A stretch of 64,000 nucleotides of DNA from assembly GCF_055900595.2 (NCBI RefSeq), contig NZ_CM148325.1, one strand, 5' to 3'. Below, in pieces: positions 48,950-54,689 of this stretch. The position numbers were made by a program, and so were the translations under genes. The notes beneath the pieces were generated by a model. It was given only the letters and a program-made list of their open reading frames with translations, was not told the origin of the DNA and made no database searches. Each line of letters begins with the position of its first letter. Position 1 is the stretch's first letter.

Positions 48950-49601
48950 GTTTCAGAATCGGTTAGTGGGTACGATCGTGCTGGTGGCGCTGGGGGTGAT
49001 TGTACTTCCAGGGTTGCTGGACGGGCAGAAAAAACATTATCAGGATGAGTTCGCGGCTATCCCGCTGGTGCCAAAAGCGGGCGATCGCGATGAGCCTGAT
49101 ATGATGCCAGCCGCCACCCAGGCGCTGCCGACGCAGCCGCCGGAAGGCGCAGCGGAAGAGGTGCGGGCAGGTGATGCCGCCGCGCCGTCGCTCGATCCGG
49201 CCACTATTGCAGCCAATAACACCGAGTTTGAACCGGAACCTGCACCGGTCGCTCCACCGAAGCCGAAACCGGTGGAACCGCCTAAACCGAAGGTTGAAGC
49301 AGCACCTGCGCCGAAGCCAGAACCGAAGCCGGTCGTGGAAGAAAAAGCCGCCCCGACGGGTAAAGCGTATGTCGTCCAGCTGGGCGCGCTGAAAAATGCC
49401 GATAAAGTGAATGAGATTGTCGGTAAGCTGCGCGGTGCCGGTTATCGGGTTTATACGTCGCCATCCACGCCGGTGCAGGGTAAAATTACCCGTATTCTGG
49501 TTGGGCCAGATGCCTCGAAAGATAAGCTGAAAGGTTCGCTGGGTGAACTCAAGCAGCTTTCTGGCTTAAGTGGCGTGGTGATGGGCTATACACCGAATTA
49601 A
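48939..49601 (+). CDS. dedD: Cell division protein DedD (SPOR domain)
   Basis: Likely GTG start (V)ASKFQNRLVGTIVLVALGV...; 220 aa; Pro-rich linker; overlaps the folC 3' end. Confidence 0.88.
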   Translation: MASKFQNRLVGTIVLVALGVIVLPGLLDGQKKHYQDEFAAIPLVPKAGDRDEPDMMPAATQALPTQPPEGAAEEVRAGDAAAPSLDPATIAANNTEFEPEPAPVAPPKPKPVEPPKPKVEAAPAPKPEPKPVVEEKAAPTGKAYVVQLGALKNADKVNEIVGKLRGAGYRVYTSPSTPVQGKITRILVGPDASKDKLKGSLGELKQLSGLSGVVMGYTPN

Positions 49602-49611
49602 TACGGTTTTG

Positions 49612-49772
<161 letters not shown>

Positions 49773-49863
49773 TGATTGCCCGATGCCGCAAAGGCATGAA
49801 AAGTCGATGGCGTTGAATATATTTTCAGCGCCATTTTTATTGATGCGCGGGAAGGAAATCCCT

Positions 49864-49879
49864 ACGCAAACGTTTTCTT
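49864..49879. promoter_or_regulatory. PurR operator (pur box) of the cvpA-purF operon
   Basis: ACGCAAACGTTTTCTT matches the PurR box consensus; 57 bp upstream of cvpA. Confidence 0.7.
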
Positions 49880-49935
49880 TTTCTGTTAGAATGCGCCCCG
49901 AACAGGATGACAGGGCGTAAAATCGTGGGACACAT

Positions 49936-50424
49936 ATGGTCTGGATTGATTACGCCATAATCGCGGTGATTGCTTTTTCCTCTCTGGTTAGCCTGATCCG
50001 CGGCTTTGTTCGTGAAACGTTATCGCTGGTGACATGGGGTTGTGCTTTCTTTGTCGCCAGTCATTACTACACTTACCTGTCAGTCTGGTTTACGGGCTTT
50101 GAAGACGAACTGGTTCGAAATGGGATTGCCATCGCGGTACTGTTTATCGCGACACTGATCGTTGGCGCTATCGTGAACTTCGTGATAGGTCAGTTGGTTG
50201 AGAAAACCCACCTGACGGGCACCGACCGGGTGCTGGGCGTCTGTTTCGGTGCGTTGCGCGGTGTGTTGATTGTTGCTGCCATTCTCTTCTTTCTCGACTC
50301 CTTTACCGGGGTGTCGAAAAGCGAAGACTGGAGCAAATCACAGCTGATCCCGCAGTTCAGTTTTATCATCAGATGGTTTTTTGATTATCTGCAAAGCTCG
50401 TCAAGTTTCTTGCCCAGAGCGTAA
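49936..50424 (+). CDS. cvpA: Colicin V production protein CvpA
   Basis: 162 aa membrane protein. Confidence 0.92.
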   Translation: MVWIDYAIIAVIAFSSLVSLIRGFVRETLSLVTWGCAFFVASHYYTYLSVWFTGFEDELVRNGIAIAVLFIATLIVGAIVNFVIGQLVEKTHLTGTDRVLGVCFGALRGVLIVAAILFFLDSFTGVSKSEDWSKSQLIPQFSFIIRWFFDYLQSSSSFLPRA

Positions 50425-50460
50425 GTGCTCTGAGATGTGGCTTAACGAGGAAAAAGACGT

Positions 50461-51978
50461 ATGTGCGGTATTGTCGGTATCGCCGGTGTTATGCCGGTTA
50501 ACCAGTCGATTTATGATGCCTTAACGGTGCTTCAGCATCGCGGTCAGGATGCCGCCGGCATCATCACCATTGATGCCAATAACTGCTTCCGTTTGCGTAA
50601 AGCGAACGGGCTGGTGAGCGATGTCTTCGAAGCTCGCCATATGCAGCGTTTGCAGGGCAATATGGGCATTGGTCATGTGCGTTACCCCACGGCTGGTAGC
50701 TCCAGCGCCTCTGAAGCGCAGCCGTTTTACGTTAACTCCCCGTATGGCATCACGCTTGCCCACAACGGCAATCTGACCAACGCTCATGAGTTGCGTAAAA
50801 AACTGTTTGAAGAAAAACGCCGCCACATCAACACCACTTCCGACTCGGAAATTCTGCTTAATATCTTCGCCAGCGAGCTGGACAACTTCCGCCACTACCC
50901 GCTGGAAGCCGACAACATCTTCGCCGCCATCGCCGCTACAAACCGCTTAATCCGCGGCGCGTATGCCTGTGTGGCGATGATTATCGGCCACGGTATGGTG
51001 GCTTTCCGCGATCCTAACGGTATTCGTCCGCTGGTACTGGGGAAACGTGATATCGACGACAATCGCACAGAATATATGGTCGCTTCCGAAAGCGTTGCGC
51101 TCGATACCCTGGGCTTTGAGTTCCTGCGTGATGTCGCCCCAGGCGAGGCGATTTACATCACTGAAGAAGGGCAGCTGTTTACCCGTCAGTGCGCTGACAA
51201 CCCGGTCAGCAATCCGTGCCTGTTCGAGTATGTTTACTTTGCCCGTCCGGACTCGTTCATCGACAAAATTTCCGTTTACAGCGCACGTGTGAATATGGGC
51301 ACCAAGCTGGGCGAGAAAATTGCTCGTGAATGGGAAGATCTGGATATCGACGTGGTGATCCCCATTCCGGAAACCTCGTGTGATATCGCGCTGGAAATCG
51401 CCCGTATTCTGGGTAAACCGTATCGTCAGGGCTTTGTGAAAAACCGCTACGTTGGTCGCACGTTTATCATGCCGGGTCAGCAGCTGCGTCGTAAGTCCGT
51501 GCGCCGTAAACTGAACGCCAACCGCGCTGAATTCCGTGATAAAAACGTCCTGCTGGTCGATGACTCCATCGTCCGTGGCACCACTTCTGAGCAGATTATC
51601 GAGATGGCACGCGAAGCCGGAGCGAAGAAAGTGTATCTCGCCTCAGCGGCACCGGAAATTCGCTTCCCGAACGTTTACGGTATCGATATGCCGAGCGCCA
51701 CGGAACTGATCGCTCACGGTCGCGAAGTAGATGAAATTCGCCAGATCATCGGTGCTGACGGGTTGATTTTCCAGGACCTCAACGATTTGATCGAAGCCGT
51801 TCGCGCTGAAAACCCGGATATCCAGCAGTTTGAATGCTCGGTGTTCAACGGCGTCTACGTCACCAAAGATGTTGATCAGGGCTACCTCGATTTTCTCGAT
51901 ACTTTACGTAATGACGACGCCAAAGCAGTGCAACGTCAGAACGAAGTGGAAAATCTCGAAATGCATAACGAAGGATGA
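50461..51978 (+). CDS. purF: Amidophosphoribosyltransferase
   Basis: 505 aa [21 protein letters not shown]... Confidence 0.95.
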
Positions 51979-52072
51979 TGCCTTCGCTCAGGGTGCCGGT
52001 CTGGCACCCTGACTTGCAACTCCCGCCGAAATCCTGCAAAGTCTGCCTGCAAGTCTGACAGGGCAACTATTT

Positions 52073-52642
52073 ATGAAACGACTCATTGTAGGCATCAGCG
52101 GTGCCAGCGGCGCGATTTATGGCGTGCGTTTATTACAGGTTCTGCGTGATGTCGCAGATGTTGAAACGCATCTGGTAATGAGCCAGGCGGCGCGCCAGAC
52201 CTTATCCCTTGAAACGGATTTCTCCCTGCGTGATGTGCAGGCATTAGCCGATGTCACGCACGATGCGCGCGATATTGCCGCCAGCATCTCTTCTGGTTCT
52301 TTCCAGACGTTGGGGATGGTGATTTTACCCTGTTCAATCAAAACCCTGTCCGGCATTGTGCATAGCTATACGGATGGCTTACTGACCCGTGCGGCAGATG
52401 TGGTGCTGAAAGAGCGTCGCCCGCTGGTGCTCTGCGTGCGTGAAACACCGCTGCACTTAGGCCACCTGCGTTTAATGACTCAGGCGGCGGAAATCGGTGC
52501 GGTAATTATGCCTCCCGTTCCGGCATTTTATCATCGCCCGCAATCCCTTGATGATGTTATAAATCAGACGGTTAACCGTGTTCTTGACCAGTTTGCGATA
52601 AATCTACCCGAAGATCTCTTTGCCCGCTGGCAGGGCGCATAA
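52073..52642 (+). CDS. ubiX: Flavin prenyltransferase UbiX
   Basis: 189 aa MKRLIVGISGASGAIYG... Confidence 0.93.
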   Translation: MKRLIVGISGASGAIYGVRLLQVLRDVADVETHLVMSQAARQTLSLETDFSLRDVQALADVTHDARDIAASISSGSFQTLGMVILPCSIKTLSGIVHSYTDGLLTRAADVVLKERRPLVLCVRETPLHLGHLRLMTQAAEIGAVIMPPVPAFYHRPQSLDDVINQTVNRVLDQFAINLPEDLFARWQGA

Positions 52643-52823
52643 CTCCACTGTTGCCCTGTTTCAGGGCAATTTTGCAACCGCGATCAAATCCTCAACATTT
52701 TGTTTCTGCCATTCAATCGAAACGCTGCGATTCAACCGCTATACCTGCTATCTTCAACTTCAGGACAATAATGCAACGTCTTGTTAACATATTTAACGTT
52801 GAATGTTACTGTTGTCGTCAAGA

Positions 52824-52840
52824 TGGCATAAGACCTGCAT
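52824..52840 (+). promoter_or_regulatory. Sigma-54 type promoter upstream of argT
   Basis: TGGCAT-N-CTGCAT with the GG and GC elements at -24/-12 spacing; argT is known to be nitrogen-regulated. Confidence 0.5.
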
Positions 52841-52906
52841 GAACGAGCCTGCAAACACACAACACAATACACAACATAAAAAAGCCATTTCACTTGAGGG
52901 TTATGT

Positions 52907-53689
52907 ATGAAGAAGTCGATTCTCGCTCTGTCTTTGTTAGTCGGGATTTCCGCAGCAGCTTCCAGCTACGCGGCGCTGCCGGAGACGGTACGTATCGGAA
53001 CGGATACCACCTATGCACCGTTCTCATCGAAAGATGCCAAAGGTGACTTTGTTGGCTTTGATATCGATCTCGGTAACGAGATGTGCAAACGGATGCAGGT
53101 GAAATGTACCTGGGTTGCCAGTGACTTTGACGCGCTGATCCCCTCACTGAAAGCGAAAAAGATCGACGCCATTATTTCGTCGCTTTCCATTACCGATAAA
53201 CGTCAGCAGGAGATTGCCTTCTCCGACAAACTGTACGCCGCAGACTCTCGTCTGATTGCTGCCAAAGGTTCACCGATTCAGCCAACGCTGGATTCACTGA
53301 AAGGTAAACATGTGGGTGTGCTGCAGGGATCAACCCAGGAAGCGTATGCCAATGATAACTGGCGCAGTAAGGGTGTCGATGTGGTGGCCTATGCTAACCA
53401 GGATTTGGTCTATTCCGATCTGGCTGCAGGACGCCTGGATGCCGCTCTGCAAGATGAGGTTGCTGCCAGCGAAGGTTTCCTCAAGCAACCTGCCGGTAAA
53501 GATTTCGCTTTTGCAGGCCCTTCAGTGAAAGACAAAAAATACTTCGGTGACGGCACCGGTGTCGGGCTACGTAAAGATGATGCTGAACTGACGGCTGCGT
53601 TTAATAAGGCGCTTGGCGAGCTGCGTCAGGACGGCACCTACGACAAGATGGCGAAAAAGTATTTCGACTTTAATGTCTACGGTGACTGA
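52907..53689 (+). CDS. argT: Lysine/arginine/ornithine-binding periplasmic protein
   Basis: 260 aa with signal peptide. Confidence 0.93.
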
Positions 53690-53906
53690 TACGTCGCAGG
53701 GAAGCTGTACCTGATGGAATGATCATGGTGCACGCCAGGTTTGTTGCACTATCGTGGTGCATTAAAATGCATACTTAAGCATTTTTAATGAAAAATAATA
53801 CGTCTAACGGGGCGGGATATTTTGCCTTGATGGTCAATTTTATGGCACGATAAGTGTAACAAACCTGTAAATATTCCCTATAAAAAGACTGTCAGTTGAG
53901 GACATT

Positions 53907-54689
53907 ATGAAAAAACTGGTGCTATCGCTCTCTCTGGTTCTGGCCTTCTCCAGCGCAACGGCGGCGTTTGCTGCGATTCCGCAAAACATCCGCATCGGTA
54001 CCGATCCGACCTATGCGCCATTTGAATCAAAAAATTCACAAGGTGAACTGGTTGGCTTCGATATCGATCTGGCGAAGGAATTGTGCAAACGCATCAATAC
54101 GCAATGTACGTTTGTCGAAAACCCGCTGGATGCGTTAATCCCGTCCTTAAAAGCGAAGAAGATTGACGCCATCATGTCATCGCTTTCCATTACGGAAAAA
54201 CGTCAGCAGGAAATTGCCTTCACCGACAAACTGTACGCTGCCGACTCTCGTCTGGTAGTGGCGAAAAATTCCGATATTCAGCCGACAGTCGAGTCGCTGA
54301 AAGGCAAGCGCGTAGGCGTATTGCAGGGCACCACCCAGGAGACGTTCGGTAACGAACACTGGGCACCAAAAGGCATTGAAATCGTCTCTTATCAGGGGCA
54401 GGACAACATTTATTCTGACCTGACTGCCGGACGTATTGATGCCGCATTCCAGGATGAGGTCGCCGCCAGCGAAGGTTTCCTCAAACAACCCGTTGGTAAA
54501 GATTACAAATTCGGTGGCCCGTCTGTTAAAGATGAAAAACTGTTTGGCGTAGGGACCGGCATGGGTCTGCGTAAAGAAGATAACGAATTGCGCGAGGCAC
54601 TGAACAAAGCCTTTGCCGAAATGCGCGCTGACGGTACTTACGAGAAATTAGCGAAAAAGTACTTCGATTTTGATGTTTATGGTGGTTAA
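53907..54689 (+). CDS. hisJ: Histidine-binding periplasmic protein
   Basis: 260 aa, paralogue of ArgT. Confidence 0.93.

Follow-up and report, generated by a model that had tools for sequence, protein, structure and literature searches.

Purine and nitrogen control in Escherichia coli supply several well-described systems with which the locus studied here can be compared. The purF operator belongs to the pur regulon, which is governed by PurR, a repressor of the LacI/GalR family, and reportedly both Rolfes & Zalkin 1988 and Schumacher et al. 1997 carry it in their titles. PurR at purF and NtrC at argT are reference examples, respectively, of repressor-operator control and of enhancer-dependent sigma-54 transcription. 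NtrC is able to act over some distance, whichever side of the promoter it is bound on, and in the glnAp2-type architecture a pair of NtrC sites, separated by about three helical turns, lies approximately 100-150 bp upstream of the sigma-54 promoter. Overlap of sigma-70 and sigma-54 promoters is documented for glmY and glmZ (PMC3844500). For argT, transcription from a sigma-54 promoter under activation by NtrC has been described (PMC6640053); this promoter, argTp, is known in E. coli and Salmonella.

The analyzed stretch of 64 kb (the window) is E. coli chromosome and contains dedD, cvpA-purF-ubiX, argT and hisJQMP; this locus is 100% identical to E. coli chromosomes with the RefSeq-annotated gene order dedD-cvpA-purF-ubiX-argT-hisJ. 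The strain is not K-12; its PurR box is identical to that of K-12, and the distance from this box to the argT motif is the same in both. We are highly confident that the locus carries three classical, already characterized control elements of cvpA-purF-ubiX, argT and hisJQMP, i.e., the purF operator, argTp, and a degraded copy of a sigma-54 promoter before hisJ (Table 1). The first two are textbook sites that are already known, and published experiments on this very sequence demonstrate occupancy by PurR, sigma-54 and NtrC. The present analysis adds that the hisJ motif has the full consensus in Citrobacter and several other genera, and that a near-consensus NtrC site lies about 116 bp upstream of it, under a strong published NtrC ChIP-seq peak.

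Table 1. Genes and regulatory features of the cvpA-hisJ region (positions in the window)
Feature	Position	Strand	Basis
PurR operator (pur box) ACGCAAACGTTTTCTT	49864-49879	+	consensus, matrix, conservation, published ChIP-chip
Probable sigma-70 -10 TAGAAT, cvpA-purF-ubiX promoter	49887-49892	+	invariant across genera; predicted from sequence
cvpA-purF-ubiX operon under the PurR box	49936-52642	+	ORFs and RefSeq annotation, identical E. coli locus
cvpA	49936-50424	+	ORF, RefSeq
purF	50461-51978	+	ORF, RefSeq
ubiX	52073-52642	+	ORF, RefSeq
Palindrome TGCCCTGTTTCAGGGCA, candidate weak NtrC upstream activating site and/or ubiX terminator stem	52652-52668	.	conserved block
Sigma-54 promoter argTp ATGGCATAAGACCTGCA	52823-52839	+	matrix, ChIP-seq OS22, conservation
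C/A-rich argT 5' leader, probable GcvB (R1 seed) pairing site	52853-52885	+	sequence
argT, lysine/arginine/ornithine-binding periplasmic protein	52907-53689	+	ORF, RefSeq
Possible second, weaker NtrC site GGAATGATCATGGTGCA, only the right half good	53716-53732	.	predicted; sequence
NtrC binding site TGCACTATCGTGGTGCA	53745-53761	.	consensus, published ChIP-seq, conservation
A/T-rich conserved block, probable pair of ArgR boxes	53766-53804	.	conserved AATGCATACTTAAGC...TTTTNATGCAAAATAA
Probable -35 TTGCCT, sigma-70 hisJ promoter	53822-53827	+	conserved TTTGCC block; predicted
Sigma-54-like motif ATGGCACGATAAGTGTA before hisJ	53842-53858	+	matrix, conservation
hisJ, histidine-binding periplasmic protein, first gene of hisJQMP	53907-54689	+	ORF, RefSeq

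The initial annotation had placed a pur operator upstream of cvpA, and this assignment holds. The string is in place; it forms an imperfect palindrome of 16 bp around a central CG and matches the PurR consensus (ACGCAAACGTTTTCNT / ACGNAAACGTTTGCNT) with zero mismatches; for ACGCAAACGTTTTCNT this is the only such match on both strands of the 64 kb, compared to about 1e-4 matches expected by chance (128,000 positions / 4^15). Using a matrix of 27 other published, ChIP-supported PurR sites, from which the site itself was left out, we calculated a score of 21.4 bits for the box, the highest in the window and above the training median of 20.0; the runner-up (13.3 bits) is itself a training site, and the best non-training match reaches 10.5 bits. 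The cvpA-purF-ubiX promoter is among the previously characterized PurR targets in the ChIP-chip study of Cho et al. 2011, where the peak at 2,428,603-2,428,965 was detected with adenine only, and the motif under it, AAGAAAACGTTTGCGT (2,428,842-2,428,857), is the reverse complement of the box and corresponds to window positions 49864-49879 (PMC3159470). The box has the same sequence, the same gene and the same position as the known purF operator, with no difference between the two. Of 68 Enterobacteriaceae loci, which represent about 30 genera, 67 share the 16-mer unchanged, the single variant being a T-to-A change in the center that is common among PurR sites, and its distance to the cvpA ATG is 71-74 nt across these loci and 72 nt in the window.

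In the alignment across genera, the box is part of a 50-nt fully conserved block that includes the hexamer TAGAAT, which probably represents the -10 element of the cvpA promoter. This hexamer is located 7 bp downstream of the box, so that the box would lie over the -35/spacer region. We infer from this arrangement that operator and promoter overlap. PurR, with hypoxanthine or guanine bound, occupies the operator, and from its place across the -35/spacer region it would block RNA polymerase, such that the operon would be repressed when purines are plentiful. A sigma-70 promoter scan called no promoter at cvpA, argT or hisJ, and is uninformative for these weak or non-sigma-70 promoters. The -10 and -35 assignments at cvpA and hisJ are predictions from sequence, as is the start of argT.

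The initial annotation had also proposed a sigma-54 type promoter under NtrC control for argT, on the basis of the string TGGCATAAGACCTGCAT, which we located at 52824-52840, and both parts of this proposal are supported by published binding in E. coli and Salmonella and by the literature on argT transcription cited above. The GG at 52825-52826 (-24) and the GC at 52837-52838 (-12) are exactly 10 bp apart, and the sequence TGGCAT-AAGAC-CTGCA differs from the consensus TGGCAC-N5-TTGCW by two mismatches, both in non-critical positions. The predicted start of transcription is at about 52850, 57 nt before the argT ATG. With a matrix of 41 other ChIP-bound sites, argTp ranks second among 128,000 positions (14.8 bits, compared to a lower quartile of 14.6 for the bound sites, i.e., within the bound range). 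The TGGCA and TGC blocks, including the invariant GG and GC, are retained in all 81 loci examined, amid spacers that vary (AAGAC, AAAAC, AAAAG, GAGAC and GGTAA are among the variants).

The argT promoter is the sigma-54 ChIP-seq site OS22 of Bonocora et al. 2015, with a distance of 58 to argT and a FAT score (fold above threshold, a measure of ChIP-seq enrichment) of 12; in the EcoCyc column of that study, in which entries are P or C, argT carries P, which we read as “predicted” rather than experimentally confirmed (PMC4591121). PurR ChIP-chip (PMC3159470) and sigma-54 ChIP-seq (PMC4591121) coincide with the PurR box and the argT motif, respectively. In Salmonella, the identical 18-mer was bound in ChIP-chip experiments and listed as a known NtrC/sigma-54 promoter, with 3.5-fold rpoN-dependent expression (PMC3844500). 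Published gSELEX data for RpoN holoenzyme show a peak at the argT spacer, and a published argTp-lacZ fusion at the lac locus responds to deletion of glnK. When 12 sigma-54 promoters were tested on a plasmid, a 198-bp clone of argTp (52652-52849) had the highest activity (primers in the supplement of PMC7045595). The 17-mer of the window is identical to OS22 and to the Salmonella LT2 STM2355 promoter, at the same distance to the start codon; the window, with TGAACGAGCC, differs by one base just 3' of the core from K-12, whose primer sequence reads TGAAAGAGCC, and this base is outside the -24 and -12 elements. In the mechanism that we propose, the sigma-54 holoenzyme would wait at argTp as a closed complex until NtrC, phosphorylated under nitrogen limitation, reaches it by DNA looping; firing would induce the Lys/Arg/Orn binding protein and also hisJQMP, the latter probably by read-through.

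It should be noted that the sigma-54 sequence match alone is within chance expectation across the 64-kb window. Simple consensus counting yielded 36 matches with at most two mismatches versus 42.6 expected; we rejected such counting for both sigma-54 and NtrC, because match counts equal to the shuffle expectation cannot validate sigma-54 sites, and used leave-one-out matrices, positional probability, conservation and published binding data instead. Dinucleotide shuffles of the window contain on average 1.3 matches scoring at least as high as argTp and 4.8 scoring at least as high as the hisJ motif, and the non-random part is the placement of these two motifs upstream of genes: the probability of such a match in a given 120-nt upstream window on the same strand is about 0.001 for argTp and about 0.0045 for the hisJ motif. 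The top matrix match of the window, at 42411-42427, lies inside a 331-aa ORF and is absent from the available portions of the published sigma-54 binding lists; therefore, a matrix score alone is no proof of binding. The number of sigma-54 matrix matches in the window, which does not exceed that in shuffled sequence, is the one observation that would fit an interpretation of the motifs as functionless chance matches. This interpretation has a vanishingly small probability, given the published in vivo occupancy of these exact bases by PurR, sigma-54 and NtrC, the fact that about 30 genera keep the PurR box and the argT GG/GC amid variable spacers, and the rarity of the exact PurR consensus; for the PurR box and argTp, it is refuted by the binding data. 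For calibration, it is of value that a reading of the raw sequence placed three real regulatory sites correctly.

The element before hisJ, described in the initial annotation as weaker than that of argT (string TGGCACGATAAGTGTAA, found at 53843-53859), is indeed weaker in Escherichia. The motif TGGCAC-GATAA-GTGTA has a perfect -24 TGGCAC; its -12 element is GT rather than GC, so that the GG/GC pair at 10-bp spacing is lacking, and it ranks third among the 128,000 matrix positions, with 12.5 bits versus 14.8 for argT. Across the 81 loci, TGGCA is present before hisJ without exception, the -12 GC in 44, and the full TGC in 28. All seven Escherichia sequences have GTGTA at this position, whereas Citrobacter and other genera have ATGGCACGATAACTGCA (18.2 bits), and full-consensus motifs in Citrobacter, Franconibacter, Superficieibacter and others score 17.5-18.4 bits. 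The hisJ motif is not found in published sigma-54 lists: neither the motif nor the gene appears in the main text and eight supplementary text files of Bonocora et al. 2015 as available, among which the low-stringency (5-fold relaxed) S2 Table is expected (PMC4591121); both are likewise absent from the main text of the Salmonella sigma-54 ChIP-chip study (PMC3844500) and from the published RpoN gSELEX tables, in which argT is present.

The hisJQMP operon is transcribed by sigma-70 and regulated by ArgR, which binds a pair of 18-bp boxes that stop 17 bp upstream of the -35 element of hisJ (PMC6640053). In the window, TTGCCT follows the second putative ArgR box by 17 bp, in agreement with that description. 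The boundaries of the boxes within 53766-53804 are uncertain, because a scan with the ArgR-box consensus gave one match, with three mismatches, at 53756-53773, in a register different from that of the conserved block. The sigma-54-like motif overlaps the -10 region of this promoter (TGgCACGAT read as an extended -10), an overlap that the initial annotation missed. The likeness to glmY and glmZ is that the hisJ motif sits atop the -10 region of a sigma-70 promoter, much as the two promoters of each of those genes overlap fully; the difference is that the sigma-54 half of the E. coli hisJ promoter looks degraded, and dual use of the hisJ region is hypothetical in every species.

The overlap raises the question of whether the conserved TGGCACGAT is only a sigma-70 extended -10 (TGn followed by CACGAT), with a coincidental resemblance to a -24 element. 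Consistent with this, TGGCACGAT follows the conserved -35 TTGCCT by 15 bp with constant spacing between genera, the position of the -35 agrees with ArgR boxes ending 17 bp upstream (PMC6640053), and the -12 part is unconserved in 37 of the 81 loci, in contrast to TGGCAC, which every locus retains. However, CACGAT is a poor -10 (three of six positions) and yet is invariant, with no drift; 44 of the 81 loci have GC precisely at -12, compared to a random expectation of about 6%, although the loci are related and not independent; the full TGC in 28 of 81 loci brings scores of up to 18.4 bits; and an NtrC enhancer lies at the canonical distance. We regard an exclusively sigma-70 function as somewhat improbable.

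This NtrC site, the strongest of the locus, is upstream of hisJ rather than argT, which the initial annotation did not notice. TGCACTATCGTGGTGCA has one mismatch to the 17-bp dyad TGCACCAnnnTGGTGCA (the NtrC consensus as quoted in PMC8743547) and is the best NtrC match on both strands of the window, with about 0.02 one-mismatch matches expected by chance. Its center is approximately 116 bp upstream of the would-be hisJ sigma-54 start and approximately 900 bp downstream of argTp. NtrC ChIP-seq peak 12, “hisJQMP” (2424941-2425021, 23.7-fold), corresponds to window positions 53700-53780 (PMC4066584); the site is real and occupied in vivo. The center of GGAATGATCATGGTGCA is 29 bp from that of TGCACTATCGTGGTGCA, at about -145 from the would-be hisJ start; its TGGTGCA half is conserved in the alignment, and the site lies inside the published peak interval. 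Across genera, NtrC-like sites are kept at the position 53745-53761, irrespective of how good the -12 element of hisJ is. The region upstream of hisJ thus resembles the glnAp2-type architecture, with its near-consensus NtrC site (about -116) accompanied by a half-site (about -145), and differs from it in that the Escherichia core is without the -12 GC and no sigma-54 binding has been reported there.

A functional interpretation of this arrangement is that the hisJ motif is a working, weak, NtrC-activated sigma-54 promoter overlapping the sigma-70 promoter, with the sites at about -116 and -145 as its enhancer. The typical architecture, in which a perfect TGGCAC and the right promoter spacing are combined with a near-consensus NtrC site and a half-site 29 bp further upstream, together with a strong NtrC ChIP-seq peak annotated to the nitrogen-induced hisJQMP, are in line with this interpretation, as are the full consensus at this place in Citrobacter, Franconibacter, Superficieibacter and others, the existence of bound sites with TGTA at -12 (pspA, TTGGCACGCAAATTGTA; pspG; Salmonella hydN, TGGCACGATTCGTGTATA), and the documented overlap at glmY and glmZ (PMC3844500). 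We nevertheless consider it unlikely in E. coli, where the -12 GC is lost in seven of seven Escherichia sequences, the literature gives hisJQMP to sigma-70 (PMC6640053), and hisJ is missing from the available texts of Bonocora et al. and of the Salmonella study and from the gSELEX list.

Our tentative interpretation, which is possible rather than probable, is that the hisJ motif is what remains of an ancestral sigma-54 promoter activated by NtrC, of which the -12 GC was lost in the Escherichia lineage and the NtrC enhancer was retained and is still heavily occupied. If so, the enhancer of E. coli must now have another role, either activating argTp, to which it lies about 900 bp downstream, or influencing the sigma-70 promoter of hisJ, and the locus would represent a natural case in which, within a pair of paralogous genes, a promoter has turned over and its enhancer was kept. 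As part of the main interpretation given above, the Escherichia motif is a degraded copy of a sigma-54 promoter over the working, ArgR-controlled sigma-70 promoter. The loose end is that the best NtrC site of the locus in Escherichia fronts a sigma-54-like core without the -12 GC, while the same core has the full consensus in neighboring genera.

At argT, compared to the glnAp2-type architecture, a good core is combined with a poor local NtrC-like site that is farther away, at about -190. This site, TGCCCTGTTTCAGGGCA, directly follows ubiX; the assignment is tentative, because it has five mismatches to the NtrC consensus. In E. coli, the spacer between ubiX and argT contains no match with fewer than five mismatches, and the best one in the 200 bp before argTp likewise has five. 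Klebsiella has TGCGCTGCGGTGGTGCA at this position, which is nearer to the consensus, and most genera have two NtrC-like sites upstream of argT, at about -190 and -222. The published argTp clone begins exactly at 52652 (primer argTp-F, supplement of PMC7045595). In the NtrC ChIP-seq data, argT has a weak peak (5.4-fold) that had been called by eye (PMC4066584).

Which NtrC sites serve argTp can be inferred provisionally from these data. The enhancer of argTp could be the strong site pair between argT and hisJ, acting by looping from about 900 bp downstream, and not the ubiX-argT spacer. The argT-hisJ site is the sole near-consensus NtrC site of the locus, is retained across genera regardless of hisJ -12 quality, and shows 23.7-fold enrichment, versus the weak, hand-called 5.4-fold signal, which is centered on the argT core promoter and might come from cross-linking through the loop. 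On the other hand, the 198-bp fragment (52652-52849), which is without the hisJ-proximal sites, was the strongest of the 12 sigma-54 promoters, argTp-lacZ at the lac locus was still responsive to glnK deletion, and the pair of NtrC-like sites at about -190 and -222 in most genera suggests a local enhancer. We therefore consider control of argTp solely from the downstream sites to be quite unlikely.

An Rfam scan of positions 49400-54100 gave a single match, the REP-derived naRNA4, and neither a riboswitch nor a leader RNA at cvpA, argT or hisJ. The argT leader at 52853-52885 probably contains a pairing site for the small RNA GcvB, as judged from its base composition: the equivalent segment is C/A-rich in all genera of the alignment, with variable length, and in Salmonella argT has been verified as an R1 target of GcvB, which is listed as conserved for E. 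coli (PMC9299463).

The initial annotation had proposed a PurR box upstream of cvpA-purF, a sigma-54-type promoter under nitrogen (NtrC) control upstream of argT, and a weaker sigma-54-type element upstream of hisJ. Each of these three proposals is supported, and the strings lie at the claimed positions, 49864-49879, 52824-52840 and 53843-53859. Several E. coli chromosomes match the segment 49500-54000 at 100% identity, and 5,424 of the 5,426 complete E. coli genomes cover at least 80% of it. An identical locus annotated in RefSeq has the plus-strand order dedD, cvpA, purF, ubiX, argT, hisJ, hisQ, hisM, hisP, in agreement with the open reading frames called in the window. The K-12 numbering runs opposite to that of the window, and published positions were converted as window = 52831 + (2425890 - genome). 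The published PurR and sigma-54 motifs convert exactly onto the annotated strings; thus, the mapping is internally consistent. For comparison, we used 80 orthologous loci, representing about 30 Enterobacteriaceae genera (81 sequences with the window); the order cvpA-purF-ubiX-argT-hisJ is unchanged across all fetched loci.

Genes around the three elements, in window coordinates
Feature	Position	Strand	Basis
cvpA	49936-50424	+	ORF
purF	50461-51978	+	ORF
ubiX	52073-52642	+	ORF
argT	52907-53689	+	ORF
hisJ	53907-54689	+	ORF

The PurR box matches ACGCAAACGTTTTCNT without mismatch, as does no other site in the window; about 1e-4 such matches are expected by chance. Using a leave-one-out position weight matrix, built from 27 PurR sites listed by Cho et al. 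2011 (PMC3159470), the cvpA site being excluded, we found that the box scores 21.4 bits, the highest value in the window (training-site median, 20.0), whereas the runner-up, itself a training site, reaches 13.3 bits and the best non-training match 10.5 bits. This match is far beyond chance. The same bases were recovered experimentally: a PurR ChIP-chip region was reported at cvpA-purF-ubiX in the adenine condition only, its motif AAGAAAACGTTTGCGT at 2,428,842-2,428,857 corresponds to the string at 49864-49879 read on the opposite strand, and the promoter was counted as a previously characterised PurR target (PMC3159470). The box is the purF operator, already in the literature. Of 68 loci, 67 carry the box unchanged, 71-74 nt upstream of cvpA; it belongs to an invariant 50-nt block that also holds TAGAAT, 7 bp downstream of the box. 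We infer that TAGAAT is the -10 hexamer, in which case the operator would overlap the -35/spacer region, so that PurR bound to it would occlude the promoter and repress cvpA-purF-ubiX. The runner-up, ACCAAAGCGATGGCAT at 39418-39433, is the motif under the PurR ChIP-chip region for fabB-mnmC (PMC3159470), and is the second-best match of the window, though within the training set.

Between dedD and cvpA, positions 49609-49790 contain a pair of 72-nt direct repeats with 92% identity, together with three 15-nt repeats, all of which look like REP/BIME elements; an Rfam match to naRNA4 (81.9 bits) covers 49649-49719. A low RpoN gSELEX peak at 2429072, assigned to the cvpA spacer by Shimada et al. 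2021, converts to about 49649, within these repeats and not at a sigma-54 motif. Between the REP elements and the PurR box, a terminator-like hairpin followed by a T run (GATGGCGTTGAATATATTTTCAGCGCCATT, 49806-49835) is kept across genera, and is presumably a terminator insulating the cvpA promoter.

By itself, a sigma-54 sequence match does not exceed chance in a 64-kb window: allowing at most two mismatches, the degenerate consensus gave 36 matches versus 42.6 expected. With a matrix derived from 41 other ChIP-bound sites, the argT and hisJ motifs rank second (14.8 bits) and third (12.5 bits) among 128,000 positions, and shuffled windows yield 1.3 and 4.8 matches at the respective cut-offs. 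The top match (CTGGCGCAACGTTTGCT, 42411-42427, minus strand, 15.8 bits) sits in sense orientation within a 331-aa ORF (41678-42673) and is absent from the published sigma-54 ChIP-seq lists; thus, a high matrix score is not in itself predictive of binding. More telling is where the motifs lie: both are on the coding strand, 65-85 nt upstream of a start codon, and the two genes are paralogues; the chance of a match this good in a given 120-nt window is about 0.001 for argT and about 0.0045 for hisJ.

The argT motif is argTp, the sigma-54 promoter of argT, which is already in the literature and has been employed as an engineering part (Ma et al. 2020, PMC7045595). The motif coincides with the sigma-54 ChIP-seq site OS22 (ATGGCATAAGACCTGCA, 58 nt from argT), which has a FAT score (fold above threshold, an enrichment measure) of 12 (Bonocora et al. 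2015, PMC4591121); an RpoN holoenzyme gSELEX peak is also located in the argT spacer (Shimada et al. 2021). TGGCA and TGC are correctly spaced in all 81 sequences, with the five spacer bases varying, and such fixed blocks with a drifting spacer are the signature expected of a sigma-54 promoter. The NtrC control proposed for argT likewise agrees with published data: in Salmonella, the identical TGGCATAAGACCTGCATG of argT was bound in ChIP-chip and is listed as a known NtrC/sigma-54 promoter, expression being 3.5-fold rpoN-dependent (Samuels et al. 2013, PMC3844500), and a weak NtrC ChIP-seq peak at argT (5.4-fold) was added by eye (Brown et al. 2014, PMC4066584). Just past the -12 element (52840-52849), the window has TGAACGAGCC versus TGAAAGAGCC in the K-12 primer, a difference of one base. 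The argT leader contains a stretch, ACACACAACACAATACACAACAT (52853-52885), that is rich in C and A in every genus and expanded in Trabulsiella. This composition suits the C/A-rich targets known for the small RNA GcvB, of which argT is a verified one in Salmonella (PMC9299463).

The hisJ element, whose motif spans 53842-53858, is indeed the weaker one, in score and in the replacement of the -12 GC by GT in Escherichia (GTGTA in 7/7 sequences; CCGCA in Salmonella). TGGCA is kept in 81/81 sequences, about 65 nt upstream of the ATG, and the -12 GC in 44. Full-consensus motifs (ATGGCACGATAACTGCA/T), found in Citrobacter, Franconibacter, Superficieibacter, Pseudocitrobacter and others, score 17.5-18.4 bits (18.2 for ATGGCACGATAACTGCA) and outscore argT. 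TGgCACGAT can also be read as the extended -10 of a sigma-70 hisJ promoter, with the conserved TTGCCT (53822-53827), 15 bp upstream of TGGCAC, as its -35; this reading would account for TGGCAC being invariant even in loci with a decayed -12 part. Superimposed on this sigma-70 promoter there may be a sigma-54 promoter, either ancestral or lineage-specific; in its favour are the GC found precisely at -12 in over half of the loci, the occurrence of full-consensus versions in several genera, and the canonical distance of an NtrC enhancer. That the motif still works as a weak sigma-54 promoter in E. coli appears unlikely; we leave it some room because TGTA-type -12 elements occur in the bound promoters pspA, pspG and Salmonella hydN (PMC4591121, PMC3844500). 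Its absence from the main text of Bonocora et al. (PMC4591121) and from eight supplementary files, possibly truncated but expected to contain the low-stringency S2 Table, argues against its working at present in E. coli K-12.

The enhancer in question, TGCACTATCGTGGTGCA at 53745-53761 between argT and hisJ, is the single near-consensus NtrC site in the window (one mismatch; about 0.02 expected). Its centre lies about 116 bp upstream of the would-be hisJ sigma-54 start, a putative NtrC half-site (53716-53732) lies 29 bp further upstream, and the main site is enclosed by the strong hisJQMP NtrC ChIP-seq interval (23.7-fold; PMC4066584), which converts to 53700-53780. NtrC-like sites at this position are present in 11/30 loci with a strong hisJ motif versus 37/51 with a weak one, i.e., they are retained irrespective of -12 quality. 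The annotation can thus be refined: the hisJ element appears to overlap a sigma-70 promoter, downstream of the strongest NtrC site of the locus. It should be noted that the literature already contains this NtrC site as well as hisJ control by sigma-70 and ArgR, and that nothing in the initial annotation is new. Two minor, testable points we have not found stated there are the between-genus hisJ pattern (full consensus in Citrobacter and others; -12 lost and enhancer retained in Escherichia) and which NtrC sites feed argTp.

In the E. coli spacer upstream of argT, good NtrC sites are lacking; the closest candidate, with five mismatches, is a conserved palindrome directly after ubiX (TGCCCTGTTTCAGGGCA, 52652-52668, centred at about -190). 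This palindrome may be the terminator stem of ubiX, a degenerate NtrC site, or both. The same position is much nearer the NtrC consensus in Klebsiella, Raoultella and Entomohabitans, and most genera have a second NtrC site about 32 bp further upstream; Escherichia lacks it. The published argTp clone, a 198-bp fragment, begins exactly at the palindrome and was the most active among 12 sigma-54 promoters (PMC7045595), which argues that the fragment is self-sufficient.
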